From assembly GCA_041664165.1 (NCBI GenBank), contig JBAYLH010000002.1, positions 9,665 to 73,664 on the forward strand: a stretch of 64,000 nt of DNA. The letters run 5' to 3'. Positions 2,743 through 59,953 of the stretch are shown piece by piece (the first letter of the stretch is position 1; the number at the start of each line of letters is the position of its first letter). The stretch is from Candidatus Buchananbacteria bacterium (lineage in GTDB: Bacteria > Patescibacteriota > Patescibacteriia > Buchananbacterales > UBA6539). The notes beneath the pieces were generated by a model. That model ran no database searches. It had not been told where the DNA came from and saw nothing but the letters and a program-made list of their open reading frames with translations. The position numbers and the translations under genes are program-made.

Positions 2743-3987
2743 ATGTTGCAATCAAAATTATTTGGTAAAACCCTCAAAGAACCGCCGAAAGACGAAGTCA
2801 GCATTAACGCCATATTTTTGACTCGGGGCGGCTTTGTCGATAAATTAACCGCCGGCGTTTATACTTATTTGCCGCTCGGCCTGCGGGTTTTGAATAAGGT
2901 CAAGCAAATTGTTCGGGAGGAAATGGATGCGATTTCCGGCCAGGAAATTTTAATGCCGGCCATTCAGCCCAAAGAAATTTGGCAAACCACCGGCCGCTGG
3001 ACCGATCCGGGCAAAGAAGTGATGTTTCAGTTCAAAGGCCGAAGTGACAAAGAGTTCGGCTTAGGCTGGACGCACGAAGAAGTCGTCACGCCGCTGGTGA
3101 AAAAATTTGTCAGTTCCTACAAAGACTTGCCGGTGTACCTTTACCAAATCCAGGATAAATTCAGAAGCGAGCCGCGGGCCAAATCCGGGCTAATGCGCGG
3201 CATTGAATTTTCAATGAAAGATTTATACAGTTTTCATCGCGATGAAAAAGATTTGGCGGCTTATTACGAGCAGGCTCTGGCGGCTTACCAAAAAGTTTTT
3301 TCCCGCTGCGGCTTAGACGCGCTAATTACGGAAGCTTCCGGCGGCTCATTTTCAAAATATTCCCATGAATTTCAAGTCTTAACGAATTACGGCGAAGACA
3401 CGATTTTTTATTGCCCCAATTGCGGTTACGCCCAAAATAAAGAAATTACGGAAATTAAAGCCGGCCATAAATGTCCGAAATGCCAAACCGAAAAAATTAA
3501 AGAAGGCAAGGCGATTGAAGTCGGCAATATTTTCCAGCTCAAGACTAAGTATTCAGAACCGTTTAAATTGGAATATGTCGATGAAAACGGCAAAAGAAAA
3601 CCGGTGATAATGGGTTGTTACGGTATCGGGCCGAGCCGGGTGATGGGGGCAGTGGTGGAAATTTTTCACGATGACAAAGGAATTGTTTGGCCGGAAAGCA
3701 TTGCGCCGTTTAAAGTTCATTTGCTGCAAATTGGCCAAGACGAGGCTATTGAAAAAAAGGCTCAGGTGGTCTATAATGAATTACTTAAGCAAAAGATTGA
3801 AGTCTTGTTTGATGACCGGCCAGACGCGACGGCCGGCCAGAAATTCGCTGATGCCGATTTAATCGGTATTCCTAATCGACTGGTAGTTTCGGCTAAGACC
3901 GGCGATAAGATTGAATTCAAAAAACGGAGTGAAAAAGAATCAGTTTTAGTCAGTTTGGCGGAATTAGTCAGAAAAATTGAAAACTAA
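2743..3987 (+). CDS. proS: prolyl-tRNA synthetase (class II, compact type with Zn-binding CPNCGY...CPKC)
   Basis: Class II aaRS motifs, FRSEPRAKSGLMRGIEF, C-terminal anticodon-binding region; start set at MLQSKLFGKTLKEP. Confidence 0.9.
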   Translation: MLQSKLFGKTLKEPPKDEVSINAIFLTRGGFVDKLTAGVYTYLPLGLRVLNKVKQIVREEMDAISGQEILMPAIQPKEIWQTTGRWTDPGKEVMFQFKGRSDKEFGLGWTHEEVVTPLVKKFVSSYKDLPVYLYQIQDKFRSEPRAKSGLMRGIEFSMKDLYSFHRDEKDLAAYYEQALAAYQKVFSRCGLDALITEASGGSFSKYSHEFQVLTNYGEDTIFYCPNCGYAQNKEITEIKAGHKCPKCQTEKIKEGKAIEVGNIFQLKTKYSEPFKLEYVDENGKRKPVIMGCYGIGPSRVMGAVVEIFHDDKGIVWPESIAPFKVHLLQIGQDEAIEKKAQVVYNELLKQKIEVLFDDRPDATAGQKFADADLIGIPNRLVVSAKTGDKIEFKKRSEKESVLVSLAELVRKIEN

Positions 3988-4057
3988 AGTCGTATTAGAA
4001 ACTTAAGTAAATCAAGCTTACTGGCTTAATTTGCTTACTAGCTTAATTTACTTTTCT

Positions 4058-5122
4058 ATGGCCATATTTAACCGCTTATTCAAAAAATTCTCCAAAGATG
4101 TCGGGATTGACTTAGGCACCGCCAATACTTTAATTTACGTTAAAGAACGCGGGATTGTGGTCAAAGAATCTTCCATCGTGGCGTTGAATAACCGCACGGA
4201 TCAAATTTTAGCCGTGGGCGAAGAAGCCGCCCGGATGGTGGGCAAAACCCCGCCGCACATTACGATTTCCCGGCCGCTGGTTGACGGCATTATTTCGGAT
4301 TTCGAAGTAACGGAAAAAATGCTCAAATATTTCATTGATCGGATTTATCAGGAAAGTTTCGGCTTGTCGCCGCGGCCGCGGGTTGTTATCGGCGTGCCAC
4401 TCGATGTAACCGAAGTGGAAAAAAAAGCCGTTGAAGACGTCGTCTTATCCGCCGGGGCGCGGGAAGTTTATTTGGTGGAAAATGTCATTGCCACCGCCAT
4501 TGGCGCGCGGCTGCCGATTCAGGATCCGTCCGGCAATATGATTGTTGATTTGGGCGGCGGCGTAACCGAAATTGCCGTGATTTCGCTTTCCGGCGTTGTC
4601 GCTTGGAAATCTTTGCGCACGGCTGGCAACAAACTCAACCAGGACGTGATGCAGTTTGCCCGCAGCGAATTTAACCTCTTAATCGGCGAAGGCGTAGCGG
4701 AAGATATTAAAATCAAAGCGGCCAAGATTATCGAATCGGGCGAACCGATTGAATTAAAAATGCGGGGCCGAGATTTGCTGACCGGTTTGCCGAAAGAAGT
4801 GATTATTAATGCCGAACAAGTCAAAGCCGCTTTGCAGCGTTCCGTTTTGACCATTATCGAAGGGATTAAAAGCACTTTGGAAATCACGCCGCCGGAATTA
4901 GTGGCCGACATTTATCAGCGGGGCATGGTTTTGGCCGGCGGCGGCGCGCTGCTCGCCGGGTTGGATCAGGCGATCGCCAAGGCCACCAAAATTCCGATTA
5001 AAGTTATTGAAGATCCCATCACTTGCGCGGTGCGGGGCATGGGCTTGATTTTGGAAGATGAAAATCTGCTCAAAGAAGTGGCGATTCCTTCTTCGACCCA
5101 GGAAGAAAAAAATTCTCGTTAA
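4058..5122 (+). CDS. mreB: rod shape-determining protein MreB
   Basis: Actin-fold ATPase signature GIDLGTANT, DLGGGVTE; ATG at 4058 preferred over TTG 4031. Confidence 0.9.
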   Translation: MAIFNRLFKKFSKDVGIDLGTANTLIYVKERGIVVKESSIVALNNRTDQILAVGEEAARMVGKTPPHITISRPLVDGIISDFEVTEKMLKYFIDRIYQESFGLSPRPRVVIGVPLDVTEVEKKAVEDVVLSAGAREVYLVENVIATAIGARLPIQDPSGNMIVDLGGGVTEIAVISLSGVVAWKSLRTAGNKLNQDVMQFARSEFNLLIGEGVAEDIKIKAAKIIESGEPIELKMRGRDLLTGLPKEVIINAEQVKAALQRSVLTIIEGIKSTLEITPPELVADIYQRGMVLAGGGALLAGLDQAIAKATKIPIKVIEDPITCAVRGMGLILEDENLLKEVAIPSSTQEEKNSR

Positions 5123-5128
5123 AAAAAT

Positions 5129-5944
5129 ATGGTTAAATTCGTCCGATCAAGCCGTTTATCTTTGGTTTTATTAGCAGTGGCAGTTCTGCTAATTTTTTTG
5201 CATTATCTTGGAATCTTAGTACCAGTCGAGAATTTGCTGATTAGAATTTTGTCGCCGATCCAGTCGTCAGTCTATTCCGCCGGCGCCAAGATTAACAGTT
5301 TTTATACGGGTTTTTCCGCCAGTAAAGATTTGAAAACGGAAAACAAAAAATTGCAGAAAGATAATGACCGGCTGGCGGTTGAAAATTCCCAGCTAAAAAC
5401 CCAGCTAGGAGATTTTCAGCAATTGAAAATCCAAAATGATTTTTTGGTTCAGGCTAATATTTCCGCCATTACCGCCAAAGTGATTGGTAAAAATCCCGAG
5501 CCGAATTACCAGGCAATTATATTGGATAAAGGCAGTAACGACGGCGTGGCCGTTGATTTGCCGCTGATTACCGGCAATGGCTTGGTTATCGGCAAAATTT
5601 TTCGGGTTAAAAGCAACAGTTCCGAAGCCATTTTGGTCAATGATTCCCGCAGCCGAATTGCGGCGATGGTGCAAAATGAAAAAAACAGCAAAGGGGCGGT
5701 AGTCGGCGAGCACGGCTTAAGCTTGAAAATTGAAATGATTCCGCAAAATGAAGCGGTTAAAGTCGGCGATATTGTCGTTACTTCGGGTTTGGAACCGACG
5801 ATTCCCCGCGGCTTGATTATCGGCAAAATCAGCCGGCTGGTTAACGAACCAAACAGTTTTTTCCAAACGGCCTGGCTGCAGTCAATGATTAAGCTCGACG
5901 ATTTAACCGTGGTTTCAATTCTGAAAAATCAAAATTATGATTAA
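5129..5944 (+). CDS. mreC: rod shape-determining protein MreC
   Basis: N-terminal TM, coiled coil, C-terminal beta domain; position mreB-mreC-mreD. Confidence 0.8.
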   Translation: MVKFVRSSRLSLVLLAVAVLLIFLHYLGILVPVENLLIRILSPIQSSVYSAGAKINSFYTGFSASKDLKTENKKLQKDNDRLAVENSQLKTQLGDFQQLKIQNDFLVQANISAITAKVIGKNPEPNYQAIILDKGSNDGVAVDLPLITGNGLVIGKIFRVKSNSSEAILVNDSRSRIAAMVQNEKNSKGAVVGEHGLSLKIEMIPQNEAVKVGDIVVTSGLEPTIPRGLIIGKISRLVNEPNSFFQTAWLQSMIKLDDLTVVSILKNQNYD

Positions 5945-6461
5945 TATTTTGTTTGGCATAATTTCCCTGCTGATTTTAGGCATCGTTCAGATTAGTTTTT
6001 TAACGACTTGGCCGCTGCCGGTCAGCAGCTTGAATTTAGTTTTAAGCCTGGTGATTTTTTTGACGGTGATGATTAATTATCAGAAAGGCTTGTGGTGGGC
6101 GCTTGGCGCCGGACTTTTTTTGGAGCTTTATTCCGGCGCGATGTTTGGCATTACGACCTTGAGCCTGATTATGACGGTTTTGGGAGTTAATTTTTTGTTT
6201 AATAATTTTTTCACCAACCGATCGCTTTATTCTTTGGTAATTTTAGGCTTTTTCGGCAGTGTGATTTACAATTTGCTAATTTTAAGCTTAAACTTCATCG
6301 GCGTCTTGTTGAAGCAGAATGTCTATTTTTTATTCTTTGATTTTTGGTCGCAGTTTTTTTGGCAGCCGGTTTTCAACGTTTTGGTTTTGATGGTTATTTT
6401 CTTTGCTTATTATCTCTCAACCGGCCGATTAAAAAATCTATTTTTATTCCCTGCCAATTAA
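5937..6461 (+). CDS. mreD: rod shape-determining protein MreD (polytopic membrane)
   Basis: Very hydrophobic 174 aa directly after mreC and before PBP2. Confidence 0.55.
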   Translation: MINILFGIISLLILGIVQISFLTTWPLPVSSLNLVLSLVIFLTVMINYQKGLWWALGAGLFLELYSGAMFGITTLSLIMTVLGVNFLFNNFFTNRSLYSLVILGFFGSVIYNLLILSLNFIGVLLKQNVYFLFFDFWSQFFWQPVFNVLVLMVIFFAYYLSTGRLKNLFLFPAN

Positions 6462-6462
6462 T

Positions 6463-8421
6463 ATGAAACTGAAGCTGAACGCCGATCCATTTTCCCTTAC
6501 GGCCGGAAATTCCAAGCTCAACAGCTACCAAGTCAGGAGCCGGCCCAAAGGCAGATGGTTTGAGGTTGATTCTTTTACGGACCGAAAAAATCGAACCGGC
6601 AACGGATCGGTTGGTTTTTATATTGATGAAAAAATTATTAATCTATGGCTTTGGTTTGTTATTTTTTGTATTTTTATCCTAGTCGTCCGGGTTGCTTATT
6701 TGCAGCTTTACCGCAGCTCATATTTTAGCAGCGTCGCCGAAGGCAACCGGATCAGGATCGCCGACATCAAAGCCACGCGGGGAGTAATTTATGACCGGTT
6801 TAACAAATTATTGGTCGAAAATTTTCCGGTTTTTTCTTTGGCCGTGATTCCGGTTGATTTGCCGAAAACCGAAGCCGAAAAAAATAAATTAATCAAAGAG
6901 CTGGCCAAACTTTCCGGCCAGTCGGAGCCGGATATTAATAAATTAATCGGCGGTCAAAAAATTTATTCCTACCAGCCGGTAATTTTAAAAGAAAATCTGA
7001 CCCAAGACGAGGCGATTTTGGCGCGGGTTTTGAGCAGTCATTTTTCCAGCGTCGTTTTGCAGGCCAACGAAAGCCGCCATTATCTGATGGCCCAAGATAA
7101 TCCCGGTCTTTCCCACGTTTTAGGCTATGAGGGCAAAATTGAGGAAAATAAGCTCGATGCCTATTTAAATCAAGGCTATTCTTTTGATGATTATGTCGGT
7201 AAAGCCGGCGTTGAATTGACTTATGAGACGGAACTCAAGGGTGTAAACGGCAAAGAGCAGGTTGAAGTCGATGCGACCGGCCAGGCGAAAGAAATTTTAG
7301 CCCAGCAAAAGCCGGTCTCGGGAAAAAATTTAGTTTTAACCATTGATGCTGATTTGCAAAAAGTCGCGGAAACTAGCTTGGCCAAAACTCTGGCGGCTAA
7401 TCATAAGCAGAAAGGGGTTGTAATCGCCTTAGACCCCAATTCCGGGGAGGTTTTGGCTTTAGTCAGCCTGCCTTCTTTTGACAACAATTTATTCAGCAAG
7501 GCTTTAAGCCAGCAAGATTCCGATAATTTATTTAATAATCCGGACCAGCCTTTGTTTTTTCGAGCGATCAGCGGGGAATATCCGCCCGGTTCGACTTTTA
7601 AGCTGATTATCAGCGCCGCGGCTTTGCAGGAGGGGATAATCGACTCAAATACCAGTTTTCAGAGCGTCGGCGGCATTCGCGTCAACCAGTGGTTTTTTCC
7701 GGATTGGAAAGCCGGCGGCCATGGCTGGACCAATGTTACTAAAGCCTTAGCTGAATCGATTAATACCTTTTTTTATATTATCGGCGGCGGGTACAATGAT
7801 TTTAAGGGCTTAGGCGTGGAAAAAATTAAAAAATATGCGGAAATGTTCGGTTTAGGCAAGGAGTTGGGAATTGATTTGCCTAACGAGGGCACTGGCTTTT
7901 TGCCCAGCGAAGATTGGAAAGAAAAAACCAAAAATGAGCTTTGGTATATCGGCGATACTTACCATTTGGCGATCGGCCAAGGCGACGTAACGGTAACGCC
8001 GCTGCAAATTGCCGCCTGGACTTCAGTTTTTGCCAATGGCGGCATTCTATACCAGCCGCACGTCGTTAAAGCTATTTTGGATTCGGAAAATAAGCCCGTA
8101 ACCGAAGTCAAACCTAAAATTTTGAATCAAGGTTTCATCAGTCCAAAAAATATTGATATTGTCAGCCAGGGTTTAAGGCAAGCGGTTTTGAGCGGTAGTG
8201 CTAAAAGCCTGCAAAGCTTGCCCATTACTTCGGCGGCCAAAACCGGCACGGCTCAGTGGTCAACGACGAAAAGTCCCCAGGCCTGGTTTACCGCTTATGC
8301 GCCCTATGAAAGTCCTAAAATTGTCGTGACGGTTTTAGTCGAAGAGGGCGGTGAAGGCAGTACAGTTGGCTTGCCGATAGCCAAAGAGGTCTTAGATTGG
8401 TGGGCCAAAAACCGGCAATAA
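6463..8421 (+). CDS. mrdA: penicillin-binding protein 2 (elongasome transpeptidase)
   Basis: STFK active-site serine motif, SxN and KTG motifs present; follows mreBCD. Confidence 0.85.
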   Translation: MKLKLNADPFSLTAGNSKLNSYQVRSRPKGRWFEVDSFTDRKNRTGNGSVGFYIDEKIINLWLWFVIFCIFILVVRVAYLQLYRSSYFSSVAEGNRIRIADIKATRGVIYDRFNKLLVENFPVFSLAVIPVDLPKTEAEKNKLIKELAKLSGQSEPDINKLIGGQKIYSYQPVILKENLTQDEAILARVLSSHFSSVVLQANESRHYLMAQDNPGLSHVLGYEGKIEENKLDAYLNQGYSFDDYVGKAGVELTYETELKGVNGKEQVEVDATGQAKEILAQQKPVSGKNLVLTIDADLQKVAETSLAKTLAANHKQKGVVIALDPNSGEVLALVSLPSFDNNLFSKALSQQDSDNLFNNPDQPLFFRAISGEYPPGSTFKLIISAAALQEGIIDSNTSFQSVGGIRVNQWFFPDWKAGGHGWTNVTKALAESINTFFYIIGGGYNDFKGLGVEKIKKYAEMFGLGKELGIDLPNEGTGFLPSEDWKEKTKNELWYIGDTYHLAIGQGDVTVTPLQIAAWTSVFANGGILYQPHVVKAILDSENKPVTEVKPKILNQGFISPKNIDIVSQGLRQAVLSGSAKSLQSLPITSAAKTGTAQWSTTKSPQAWFTAYAPYESPKIVVTVLVEEGGEGSTVGLPIAKEVLDWWAKNRQ

Positions 8422-8444
8422 TGAGCTAATTTTTTAAATTTTAT

Positions 8445-8480
8445 TTGACATAAACTGCAATATATGCTTTACTATCTTGT
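8445..8480 (+). promoter_or_regulatory. candidate promoter (TTGACA -35) for the GC-rich RNA+ORF module
   Basis: TTGACA at 8445 followed by AT-rich -10-like hexamers; immediately after mrdA stop. Confidence 0.3.
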
Positions 8481-8525
8481 TAGTTCTTTGACAGATTTTA
8501 GAGCAATAGTTACTTGCAAAAATAG

Positions 8526-8699
8526 TAGCCATAGCCAAAAGTTACCAATAGTTTTGTCATTCTGAGGGAGTCCATAATTATCTGACAGGAAGGACGACCG
8601 AAGAATCTCTAATATCCTTTGAATCCGGTCGCAATGAACTTGTCCAGAAGCGACCTTCGTTTGGGATAACAACCTTTGGTGTTTTCTGGCTATGGCTAC
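8526..8699 (+). ncRNA. candidate structured RNA closed by 16-bp long-range helix
   Basis: TAGCCATAGCCAAAAG (8526-8541) pairs with TTTTCTGGCTATGGCTA (8683-8699); internal GC-rich hairpins CGACCG...CGGTCG and GGTCGC...GCGACC; no ORF. Confidence 0.3.
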
Positions 8700-8761
8700 G
8701 CTGTGTAGTCCGCTGGCATAAACTCGAAATTGGCGAAAAACTCTTGAAAGGAGAACACGCC

Positions 8762-9394
8762 ATGAATAAAGATGGACTGTTAGATCCGCAGACATCGGCT
8801 TTTGGAGGACGTTTACTAACATGCCTTCCTGCCATGCCCGGAGGAGTGGCGCAAGACTGGTTTGATTTTCCGGAGGGATTGCAGGAGTATCTGGCCGGGC
8901 TTGCTACGTCGCCATTTGTCGTCAGGGTTGACCGTTTGGTCAAACCTGTCTACCCGGATTGGGTGAAAGAGGTTCTCCATCCGGAATTGGAGAACACAGG
9001 TCCTGACGAATTCAATCTCAAAACGGATGTCGCGCTGTGGCTCCATGACGGACAGAAGAATGGCGATGTAGTCAACTCCAAATTTGTCTATTATCACCTG
9101 CGAGACAACGGCATGCTTCCTACGTGCCTGAATCTCCAAGACGGCGAAGCGATTCGGGGAAGAGGCATTGCCGTTTTCCGGAAGTTTTTTAGAGATAAAG
9201 AAGTCTTTCTCTGGAAGGCGGTTGTGCAGGATTGTCATGGCTTCATCCGCGTCCCGCATCTCCGTGAGGTCAGATCTCAGGTTGTGGTCGAATGGCGCAG
9301 ACTTGGTGCCGGTTGTTTCGGCGATAACTATCCGGCGGCTCGCTTCACGCTACAAGTAAATATACCCTTTAGACATAAGGGCTTGATCGCTTGA
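8762..9394 (+). CDS. orphan hypothetical protein, compositionally foreign (GC-rich, CTG/CTC/GGA codons)
   Basis: AAAGGAG SD 7 nt before ATG 8762; 210 aa; no recognised domain; codon usage unlike neighbours. Confidence 0.6.
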   Translation: MNKDGLLDPQTSAFGGRLLTCLPAMPGGVAQDWFDFPEGLQEYLAGLATSPFVVRVDRLVKPVYPDWVKEVLHPELENTGPDEFNLKTDVALWLHDGQKNGDVVNSKFVYYHLRDNGMLPTCLNLQDGEAIRGRGIAVFRKFFRDKEVFLWKAVVQDCHGFIRVPHLREVRSQVVVEWRRLGAGCFGDNYPAARFTLQVNIPFRHKGLIA

Positions 9395-9435
9395 GGCGAC
9401 CTTGGACTTGCATCTCATCGACTCGCGTTGGTTTC

Positions 9436-9462
9436 ATAGACTGGCGCGGGTCTATTTTTTTT
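9436..9462 (+). terminator. rho-independent terminator candidate
   Basis: ATAGAC-tggcgcgg-GTCTAT hairpin followed by T8. Confidence 0.5.
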
Positions 9463-9548
9463 ATGCAATTGGTTAAATTACTTTGCTTTTTAGCCAAGCC
9501 ACAATAAACCCAATTATTTGGCTTTTGTGGATAAGTTAGGCCAAATAT

Positions 9549-9577
9549 TTGACATTTTGTAAATGGTCATTTATACT
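9549..9577 (+). promoter_or_regulatory. sigma70-type promoter for greA
   Basis: TTGACA-17 nt-TATACT consensus match. Confidence 0.55.
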
Positions 9578-9680
9578 AAGTTTTAGCTTTTAGCGCCGGC
9601 CGCTATTTTTTTAATATCATTATCGGCAGCGGCAAACAAACATTTTTTTAATTTTTAAATCAAAGTATAAATCAAAACTT

Positions 9681-10139
9681 ATGGGCCGAAATTACATTAC
9701 CCAAAACGGCTTGGAAAAGCTGCGGGAAGAGCTGGAGTATCTAAAAAAGAAAAAAATGCCGGAAGTAATCGAAAGAATCGCCCGCGCCAAAGAGCTGGGT
9801 GATCTCTCGGAAAACGCCGAGTATCAAGATGCCAAAGACGAGCAGGGATTTATCGCCGGCCGGATTGTTGAATTGGAAAATTTAATCAACAAATCCGAAA
9901 TTATCAAAGAAAACGGCAGCAAGGAAATGGTAACGGTCGGTTCGACTATCAAAGTAAAATGTGAAGGTAATCATTATCAATATACGATTGTCGGTTCCAA
10001 TGAAGCGGATCCGACCAAAGGCTTGATTTCCAACGAATCGCCGCTGGGTCGGGCGTTTTTGACCAGAAAATTAGGCGACAAAATTCAAGTAATCGTGCCC
10101 AAAGGGGTAATGGAGTGTGAGATTTTGGAGATTGTCTAA
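9681..10139 (+). CDS. greA: transcription elongation factor GreA
   Basis: N-terminal coiled-coil, C-terminal FKBP-like domain; 152 aa. Confidence 0.9.
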   Translation: MGRNYITQNGLEKLREELEYLKKKKMPEVIERIARAKELGDLSENAEYQDAKDEQGFIAGRIVELENLINKSEIIKENGSKEMVTVGSTIKVKCEGNHYQYTIVGSNEADPTKGLISNESPLGRAFLTRKLGDKIQVIVPKGVMECEILEIV

Positions 10140-59635: not shown

Positions 59636-59953
59636 TTATTTTTTTTCCCAAAATTTTTCGCCGGCTTCTTCCATTGCCTCGAGCCGGGTATAATAGTCCG
59701 GTAATTCGTTGAGATGAGCTAAGGCAATTTTGCCCGTGGCCAGCGGATCGTCATCGGTAACGTTGGTATCGGGGTTAACCGTGCCATGTTCAAGCTCGAC
59801 ATCCAATCCCATTCGGAATTGTTCAACGTCGAATTTAGACCAGTTGATGCCGATTTTTTCGCCGACTGCCTTGGCTTGTTCCGGAGTAAAATGTTTTTCG
59901 GTTGACATAGGTTTTATTAGTTTAATTATCTCATTTTTAGTTCTTAGTGTCAA
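59636..59953 (-). CDS. hypothetical protein with ELEHG motif
   Basis: 105 aa; LDVELEHG motif; no secure assignment. Confidence 0.4.
   Translation of the reverse strand: MTLRTKNEIIKLIKPMSTEKHFTPEQAKAVGEKIGINWSKFDVEQFRMGLDVELEHGTVNPDTNVTDDDPLATGKIALAHLNELPDYYTRLEAMEEAGEKFWEKK

Follow-up and report, generated by a model that had tools for sequence, protein, structure and literature searches.

A probable diversity-generating retroelement target cassette with a conserved mRNA leader hairpin in a Patescibacteria genome

The stretch analysed here, referred to as the window, comprises 64,000 nucleotides of contig JBAYLH010000002.1 from a genome of the Patescibacteria, also called the candidate phyla radiation (CPR). 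Within it, positions 8445–9462 form a single cassette, read as one independent transcription unit and made up of a promoter, a structured leader, a Shine–Dalgarno (SD) sequence, an open reading frame (ORF) of 210 codons and a hairpin terminator ending in eight T residues. The cassette is preceded by mreB, mreC, mreD and the PBP2 gene, which ends at 8421, and is followed by greA (9681–10139) and lysS. We read it as a cassette of the family of target genes of diversity-generating retroelements (DGRs), with an mRNA leader hairpin that is conserved as an RNA structure in many CPR genomes; for the identity of the module and of the hairpin together, the regulatory mechanism not included, we put the probability at roughly 0.7. 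The features of the cassette are as follows.

8445–8473, plus strand: sigma-70-type promoter read from the sequence, with −35 TTGACA (8445–8450), a 17-nt spacer and −10 TTTACT (8468–8473)
8483–8517, plus strand: leader motifs GTTCTTT (8483–8489) and TTACTTGC (8510–8517)
8525–8699, plus strand: conserved leader hairpin, 5′ arm 8525–8548 and 3′ arm 8676–8699, core ATAGCCA/TGGCTAT
8549–8675, plus strand: lineage-specific apical expansion of the hairpin, 127 nt, about 123 nt above the usual 4–5-nt loop
8732–8761, plus strand: SD-sequestering hairpin GGCG-AAAAA-CUCUU-GAA-AGGAG-AACA-CGCC, abutting the AUG and part of the minimum free energy (MFE) structure
8747–8753, plus strand: SD sequence AAAGGAG, read from the sequence
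8762–9394, plus strand: 210-aa ORF with its ATG at 8762, an N-terminal helical module and then a predicted C-type-lectin-like domain
9224–9346, plus strand: segment resembling a DGR variable region (VR), which aligns with the VR and the template region (TR) of loci L001 and L006 and ends in the conserved CCGGCGGCTCGCTTC
9347–9359, plus strand: indel at the 3′ boundary of the VR; after CGCTTC it has ACGCTA (9347–9352) where L001, L165 and L166 have a single G, a net gain of 5 nt
9420–9462, plus strand: intrinsic terminator found by a terminator scan, with a 15-pair stem-loop (9420–9452) and T8 (9455–9462)

The promoter aligns with the TTGACA-17-TATACT of the closest relative, L001, and was missing from a consensus promoter scan because its −10 hexamer is weak. 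Transcription is predicted to start at about 8480–8482, which leaves a 5′ untranslated region (5′ UTR) of about 280 nt before the ATG; an additional TTGACA is present at 8488–8493. The terminator is kept in L001, L165 and L166 with compensatory changes (GACTCGCG/CGCGGGTC versus GACCCACGC/GCGTGGGTC), and homology with the relatives stops there. Between the window and L001, homology likewise begins at the promoter and does not extend past the terminator. The surroundings of the cassette are unrelated: it lies between mrdA and greA here, in L001 it follows a sigma-70 gene and a tRNA-like region, and in L006 it comes after glyS. In no fetched locus are mrdA and greA adjacent. The first-pass annotation of this DNA had placed the promoter, SD sequence, ORF and hairpin+T8 terminator at or close to these positions, and its description of a self-contained cassette with a promoter and terminator of its own agrees with what we observe. 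It had also called the module compositionally foreign, which can be kept in a weaker form only: the GC content of the ORF is 0.512, compared with 0.431 for the window and 0.43–0.45 for the neighbouring genes, a moderate excess.

The 210-aa product is identical to P0001, recorded as 'MAG: hypothetical protein WC768_01040 [Patescibacteria group bacterium]'. Searches of Pfam, NCBIfam, PHROGs and PADLOC gave no match, in line with the earlier remark that it contains no recognisable motif, and neither Foldseek against the PDB nor a sequence-profile search of the PDB returned one. It has no evident signal peptide. The predicted model of the protein does give C-type-lectin-fold matches, which are weak but consistent. 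Homologues are plentiful: a word-indexed search found 22, all from CPR bacteria or metagenomes, and a full profile search extended the family to 1335 clusters (50% identity), of which 426 lie below 1e-30.

The nature of the protein becomes clear from what lies beside these homologues. P0002 (58% identity, E = 3e-65) and P0009 (54%) both have an adjacent adenine-specific TR, and their genes adjoin genes for bAvd (PF22296) and for an RVT_1 reverse transcriptase (RT). In L006, the VR occupies the last 129 nt of the gene (5452–5580) and is 91% identical to a TR at 5935–6063, all mismatches being at an A in the TR; the pair in L001 has the same adenine-specific pattern, and L028 shows the full order of target (VR 4302–4428), TR (4843–4969), Avd on the minus strand and a 358-aa RT. 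Adenine-specific repeat pairs were found in 44 of the 165 fetched loci, and the adenine test on TR and VR was positive in L001, L006, L010, L012, L013, L017, L022, L023, L028 and L039. In such relatives the TR lies about 360 nt 3′ of the cassette, has its own promoter and is followed by an antisense bAvd gene and the DGR RT. The family alignment shows hypervariable columns interspersed in the last ~45 residues, and in the 90% identity clusters of P0016 and P0009, which served as positive controls, differences are confined to interspersed C-terminal positions, as is characteristic of DGRs at work. Because adenine-specific TR/VR pairs, bAvd and RT genes stand beside its homologues, the window protein is best read as the variable (target) protein of a DGR, and the window module is, judging from these homologies, very probably a cassette of the DGR target family.

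These observations bear directly on the interpretation first given to the locus, that of an undescribed two-component defence system in which a ~170-nt RNA acts with the 210-aa protein in the manner of a retron or of a type III toxin–antitoxin pair. The co-occurrence of the RNA element and genes for ~200-aa proteins in more than 100 genomes, the cassette's own promoter and terminator and the lack of any known domain would suit such a system, and the predicted pairing of the element with a ~200-aa protein has indeed turned out to be conserved across many genomes. Against this, the family has been shown to be a DGR target, and its predicted model has a lectin-like binding fold, not that of a nuclease or toxin, and homologous loci contain adenine-specific TR/VR pairs that contradict an RNA-plus-effector function; the protein is the variable protein of a known DGR system whose other parts (TR/VR, bAvd and RT) accompany its homologues. 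No RT was found in the window, as had been noted before, nor was any msr/msd-like structure, and the region 8000–10000 has no match to a retron or any other Rfam family, which leaves the comparison with retrons without a basis. That with type III toxin–antitoxin systems fails as well: there is no tandem RNA-repeat array (Tandem Repeats Finder reports only a 10-mer in 1.9 copies, so the earlier statement that no repeat array is present stands), no PADLOC match, and the predicted fold is lectin-like. In addition, the RNA runs without interruption into the mRNA leader, directly 5′ of the SD sequence, its inner 125 nt occur in this lineage only and are unstructured, and the element is absent from viral contigs. 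We consider an RNA-plus-effector system scarcely credible.

Several further observations were made on the proteins encoded 3′ of hairpins of the kind described below. The ORFs in L061, L076, L080, L083, L102, L125, L129, L140 and L141 differ in their C-terminal variable domains and share one N-terminal helical module, Q..KF...N.P..S...MQ.WI.NP..L, which the window protein carries at residues ~8–45; the sequences point to domain shuffling among CPR DGR targets. In L006 (6882–7526), the RT ORF beside the clean TR/VR pair is only 214 aa long and overlaps the next gene, for an AI-2E transporter; this RT may be truncated, though the 90% cluster of its target still varies in the VR only. In L002 (9134–9424, minus strand), a 96-aa HTH-like protein, possibly a local regulator, is encoded directly 3′ of a hairpin-led family member of 154 aa.

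The second part of our reading concerns the leader. It folds at −81.5 kcal/mol (z = −3.67), a value not equalled by any of 200 shuffles, and it does so because 8525–8548 pairs with 8676–8699; as first detected, the long helix has 29-nt arms that are 79% complementary. This long-range helix had been proposed from the window alone, and it is both real and conserved. In the homologues the core of the hairpin is invariant, including a conserved A–C mismatch and G–U pairs, the outer and inner stems covary, and the apex tolerates different lengths. A covariance model (R1) scores the window hairpin at 71.9 bits (E = 5e-17), the sole significant copy in the window. RNAalifold on 13 diverse copies gave a consensus of 22 pairs, and compensatory change was seen in 8. 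When 88 copies were aligned to the covariance model, 96.1% of the cells paired, compared with 33–47% when the partner columns were slid as a control, and double changes occurred in 11 of the 22 pairs, the double-change cells numbering 208 versus 52.5 in column shuffles. G–U pairs are far commoner than A–C and are fixed at some positions, and model scores reach 60–108 bits on the plus strand versus 36–57 bits on the minus strand; the G–U excess and the higher plus-strand scores indicate an RNA structure of the sense strand. We therefore hold with high confidence that the leader hairpin is a selected RNA structure.

Upstream of the hairpin, the two leader motifs of the window belong to a wider pattern, the consensus of 90 unique elements being aGtTCtTT...tAcTTgc......taGtCATAGCC. 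Many hairpin loci have a TATAAT or an extended −10 at 8–14 nt 5′ of GTTCTTT, and a −10 of this type just 5′ of the GTTCTTT and TACTTGC motifs places the hairpin ~45 nt into the transcript. Pairing of GTTCTTT with the SD sequence occurs in some MFE folds (L165, L012 and L066), not consistently, and was dropped as a candidate. No Rfam 15 family reached its gathering threshold with the window region 8000–10000, the leader or its short-loop versions, the best scores being far below; the Rfam search proposed for the leader thus gave no family. Nor did we find a conserved leader hairpin of target genes described in the DGR and RNA-motif literature searched, and the hairpin is apparently undescribed so far.

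An exact-pattern scan of one genome per species located the hairpin at no fewer than 120 loci, nearly all in Patescibacteria, among them Saccharibacteria, Paceibacterota, Parcubacteria, Nomurabacteria and others. The pattern gave 0 matches in viral contigs, with either a short gap or a gap of 110–140 nt, so the element does not appear to be phage-borne. An ORF follows the hairpin in 137 of 142 elements, usually within 10–110 nt, mostly of 195–225 aa and with a VR-like C-terminus. An iterated profile search joined 69 of these ORFs to the window family; the remainder belong to other ~200-aa families, none of them in Pfam and often with an N-terminal helical module. Even when elements were retrieved by the hairpin only, 29 of 127 had an adenine-specific VR on the same strand, starting 430–735 nt further 3′, with the TR 290–555 nt past the VR. 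The distance from hairpin to VR is typically ~560 nt and is 525 nt in the window. Conversely, the hairpin is present in most of the loci found by protein similarity that have enough upstream sequence. The window copy has all the defining features, namely the core, both motifs, an ORF 62 nt past the stem and a VR-like end, and differs only in its 127-nt apex.

Two side observations concern this distribution. One Saccharibacteria contig, L110, carries two leader hairpins on the same strand (573–675 and 3026–3136), 2.4 kb apart, and is the only locus in which two copies are clear. Seven contigs, labelled Gammaproteobacteria (L049, L054, L058, L060 and L108), Bacteroidetes (L097) and Acidobacteriaceae (L121), carry the CPR hairpin and CPR-type targets, some with TR and VR; their taxonomic labels are probably wrong through mis-binning or mislabelling.

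The apex is where the window departs from its family. A BLAST search of the leader against the homologous loci matched the two helix arms only, which there lie about 20 nt apart, and the expansion is absent from L001, L165 and L166, the three closest relatives, and from all other relatives examined, which have short loops. On its own, 8549–8675 folds no better than its shuffles (z = −0.54) and resembles nothing else in the window or in any fetched locus, and the search of viral contigs with a 110–140-nt gap produced no second long apex. Smaller apical insertions, of up to ~50 nt, occur in L058, L094 and L106. What had been described as a ~170-nt non-coding RNA is thus reduced to a conserved hairpin of ~50 nt within an actual 5′ UTR of ~280 nt, the rest being the insertion of ~125 nt in the apex; the proposed test of fold conservation in homologous loci comes out in favour of the outer helix and not of the inner GC hairpins. 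The mutually exclusive GC hairpins do exist as strings, and these strings lie inside the expansion, in sequence that the relatives examined do not have. Of the whole finding, this 125-nt inner 'RNA' has the weakest support. Stretches of the insert (8569–8593) are complementary to 8766–8778 (13 nt, 85%) and 8824–8834 (11 nt, 91%), within the first 70 nt of the coding region, which may be due to chance.

Closer to the start codon, the SD-sequestering hairpin recurs in L001 and L166, and the L165 version has a compensatory change, GACG...CGTC; this suggests that translation may be controlled at this point in the window subfamily.

An inverted repeat of this kind might also act as DNA: a recombinase could recognise it in the form of a cruciform or single-strand hairpin and mobilise the cassette, as with attC or IS200/IS605-like elements, or it could be the operator of a dimeric repressor. 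The unrelated contexts of the cassette, with the window–L001 homology ending at promoter and terminator, are compatible with mobility of this sort, and an imperfect palindrome with a fixed mismatch does resemble an attC site. However, each locus has one hairpin and no cassette arrays, the hairpin sits inside the unit, 3′ of the promoter and not at an edge, and a recombinase is not regularly found next to it. The element strongly tends to run in the same direction as the gene, and its conserved G–U pairs would be C–A mismatches on the other strand. The spacing of the arms ranges from 8 to ~50 nt and is 127 nt here, and a double-stranded operator of fixed geometry is ruled out because this spacing varies. 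An integron attC-type array was likewise rejected, the single hairpin lying within the unit at each locus and the neighbourhoods showing neither arrays nor an integrase. A role at the DNA level is therefore distinctly improbable, and the hairpin is treated below as RNA.

Some of our observations weigh against the reading of the module and its hairpin or narrow it. The search pattern had a fixed core and the alignment of the copies (A6) was fitted to the model, both of which inflate the apparent invariance and pairing. The MFE folds of whole leaders agree on no architecture beyond the hairpin. The hairpin is not universal in the family, as it is lacking in L006, L013 and L018 and in front of P0014 of L002. 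Finally, no TR-like repeat of 8422–9480 occurs within the 64-kb window, and the actual target status of the window gene comes by homology only, the searches for TR, Avd and RT having covered 64 kb of the 177.8-kb contig.

As to what the hairpin does, an invariant paired core with one fixed mismatch, fixed G–U pairs and an apex of 4–127 nt is what one would expect of a recognition site for a protein or RNase. In the working that we propose, the leader hairpin of the variable-protein mRNA would be a cis-acting RNA element, most likely bound by a conserved protein or RNase, and with the SD-sequestering hairpin (8732–8761) it would control the stability or translation of the mRNA. In DGR-bearing relatives, the last ~125 nt of the ORF is rewritten at positions that are adenine in the template. 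Post-transcriptional control, of stability or of translation, as the specific regulatory role is a tentative suggestion from comparative data, to which we give clearly less than even odds. Read-through of the post-VR terminator driven by the leader hairpin, by which the TR RNA might be made, was considered and rejected: immediately past the terminator, cis-DGR loci carry an extended −10 promoter, and since this separate promoter and a conserved region precede the TR, the hairpin is unneeded for reading through to the template. In four such loci (L028:4520–4850, L001:5690–5995, L010:4715–5010 and L141:1930–2190), the target terminator is followed by the extended −10 promoter and by ~300 nt of sequence conserved into the TR, of the form ...AGATACTTGGTA...GGCATT..GATGCCGAATACGATACAGC..GAGAGTA.TCAAGGGGCGGTGGCA. 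This pre-TR sequence has no Rfam match and is a candidate for a structured 5′ part of the CPR DGR template RNA.

A role in diversification itself was also weighed, with the hairpin as a third cis component of CPR DGRs in retrohoming, for example a tag that guides the complex of RT, Avd and cDNA to the VR. Such a tag would permit remote cassettes to be diversified in trans. It would fit the tight and directional linkage of the hairpin to VR genes, ~520–600 nt upstream of the VR, the invariance of its sequence across CPR classes whose proteins have diverged beyond recognition, and its retention by orphan cassettes. On the other hand, the near-constant distance is explained by similar ORF lengths, and, according to Guo et al. 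2011 (PMC3240598), sequences upstream of the VR are dispensable in the prototype BPP-1 DGR, where the initiation of mutagenic homing (IMH) site and a downstream hairpin suffice for a heterologous gene. Moreover, the bona fide cis-DGR targets of L006 and L013 have no hairpin, L058, with two VRs and one TR, has it on the first gene only, and the window copy has retained its hairpin while showing no variation. In a broader form, the hairpin would be a so far unrecognised cis component, an RNA or a co-transcriptional, factor-bound tag, of a regulon of variable proteins that includes remote target-only cassettes; the tag would either link the expression of these proteins to the activity of the DGR or bring the retrohoming machinery to their genes in trans, and the enlarged hairpin of the window would then be a natural insertion variant of it. 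We judge both forms improbable, and do not think that the hairpin takes any part in retrohoming.

This brings us to the state of the window copy itself. Its VR-like segment was compared with the TRs of ten relatives: the mismatch is 0.58–0.75 at TR adenines and 0.22–0.40 at other sites, a 2–2.6-fold excess, as expected of a VR that was once diversified in a lineage that has since diverged. The protein columns that match this VR are hypervariable across the family. The final CCGGCGGCTCGCTTC (9332–9346) is identical in L001, and the conserved stem-loop at 9420–9452 lies 3′ of it. The window VR also has a 3-nt insertion relative to the TRs and VRs of all relatives, and the +5 indel at its 3′ boundary puts the ancestral stop TAA (9357–9359) out of frame, adding a 13-aa tail. 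This tail has a predicted local distance difference test score below 50, and all other family members end at RFxx.

No source of present diversification was found for this copy. No RVT_1 or bAvd ORF was detected in the window, where the Pfam scan covered only the candidate ORFs at 57–62 kb, and no remnant of a DGR template region lies 3′ of the terminator. A weak 38-nt match to the VR region at 59828–59865 proved to be a chance similarity that leads to a DUF5661 gene and other unrelated genes. A degenerate VR-to-TR pattern gave 0 matches in species-representative genomes, not even to the window's own VR, which indicates that this collection does not contain the present genome. Homologues of the L028 RT number at least 8000, the best 120 being 64–100% identical, and none of these 120 matches listed bears a WC768 tag. 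Meanwhile, the region 8301–9700 is 100% identical in contigs of three other samples (L168–L170), and the 90% cluster of P0001 has one member. Cassettes without a template of their own are common, since of the 51 hairpin elements followed by 2.2 kb of sequence or more, 20 have a cis TR and 31 have none. One such orphan, L118, was considered as a trans target of L117, a DGR in the same genome; with 72% identity and 18 of 38 mismatches at non-A sites, it is no current target.

Given the lack of a TR, Avd or RT in the 64 kb, the frameshift at the VR boundary, the identity across samples and the single-member cluster, the window copy is probably an orphan whose diversification lies in the past and which has since been static, unless an element elsewhere in the genome still targets it in trans. 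The same changes could be taken further, to mean a decaying, pseudogene-like relic whose protein and enlarged hairpin have no function: the frameshifting +5 indel at the VR/IMH boundary with its unstructured 13-aa tail, the 3-nt insertion in the VR, the 125-nt insertion that disrupts the hairpin apex and the lack of a cis DGR in the window all fit decay. Yet the ORF is intact over 197 residues homologous to the family and retains all nearly invariant ones, the promoter, both hairpin arms, the SD hairpin and the terminator are preserved, and the apex tolerates insertions in L058, L094 and L106 as well. The identity of the locus in several samples fits purifying selection or recent spread. Decay to a functionless relic thus seems unlikely to us, and we keep to an orphan that is probably static.

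Two side observations concern sequences around the cassettes. Just after the T-run, window positions 9458–9556 resemble the hairpin model weakly (17.8 bits, E = 0.059). Within this segment are TTACTTTGC and two interleaved repeats, AGCCAA/TTGGCT and CCACAA/TTGTGG; the segment overlaps the sequence just 5′ of the greA promoter (TTGACA-17-TATACT, 9549–9577) and could be a chance match or a decayed second leader. Upstream of the cassette in L001 (3881–4600), an HNH-like ORF (3881–4174) is followed by tRNA-like 5′ and 3′ halves at ~4205–4245 and ~4535–4575, some 300 nt apart, which might be an intron-containing tRNA; ARAGORN made no call there, and the Rfam match is limited to a 17-nt T-arm-like piece.

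The cassette can now be set beside known systems. With the C-type-lectin variable proteins of DGRs (Mtd of Bordetella phage, Treponema TvpA, Thermus TaqVP and archaeal AvpA), the family shares ~40 C-terminal residues with interspersed hypervariable positions encoded by the VR, a TR that in the relatives differs from the VR only at adenines, and adjacent bAvd and DGR RT genes in these relatives. Unlike those proteins, its members are small (~200 aa), have an N-terminal helical module common to several target families, belong to no Pfam family and have no sequence similarity to any solved variable protein, and no TR, RT or Avd was found near the window copy. The DGRs of Patescibacteria described as DGR clade 2 (Roux et al. 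2021, PMC8144416) come from the same phylum, and those of our relatives are likewise cellular and chromosomal with a highly conserved RT; the window differs in being a target-only cassette, and a leader hairpin on targets was not found in the literature searched.

Structured nucleic acids are known at other positions of such loci. The BPP-1 DGR has a target-recognition hairpin or cruciform 3′ of the VR, within 24 bp (PMC3240598), and the GC-rich stem-loop after the window VR (9420–9452), with its compensatory changes in relatives, is reminiscent of it. However, the window stem-loop lies ~75 nt past the VR and has a T-run behind it, and so looks like an ordinary intrinsic terminator, whereas the novel hairpin is found on the other side of the gene, at its 5′ end. 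RT-associated RNA motifs, such as RT-10 and the DGR RNA spacer region (Weinberg et al. 2017, PMC5737381), are also structured RNAs of DGR loci found by comparative genomics; the present hairpin differs from them in lying in the target mRNA leader, and it matched no Rfam model. The closest parallels are the 5′-UTR stem-loops that bind or are processed by proteins, for example ribosomal-protein leaders, RNase III sites, put and EAR, which share with our hairpin its leader position, an invariant paired core with a fixed mismatch and G–U pairs, a length-tolerant apex and an accompanying SD-sequestering hairpin. In contrast to these, it has no homology to any described leader, and an antitermination role like that of put and EAR is unneeded, since cis-DGR loci provide the TR with a separate promoter.

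Taken together, the protein and its cassette appear to belong to the already known targets of CPR DGRs, and it is the phylum-wide leader hairpin that looks new. The 'foreign module' of the window is a known kind of gene and probably a static orphan, and the importance of the finding rests on the hairpin and not on this locus. In prokaryotes, no natural system other than the DGR is known to hypermutate proteins in a targeted way, and the hosts richest in DGRs include CPR bacteria. In Saccharibacteria, Paceibacterota and further CPR lineages, a covarying hairpin of invariant sequence leads several unrelated-looking families of ~200-aa variable proteins, and by comparison of these copies it is a candidate for a new RNA motif that probably has a protein as its partner. 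It provides a nucleotide marker for such genes, including orphan copies that are missed by TR/VR-based DGR finders, and it makes the need for sequence upstream of the VR testable outside the Bordetella phage.

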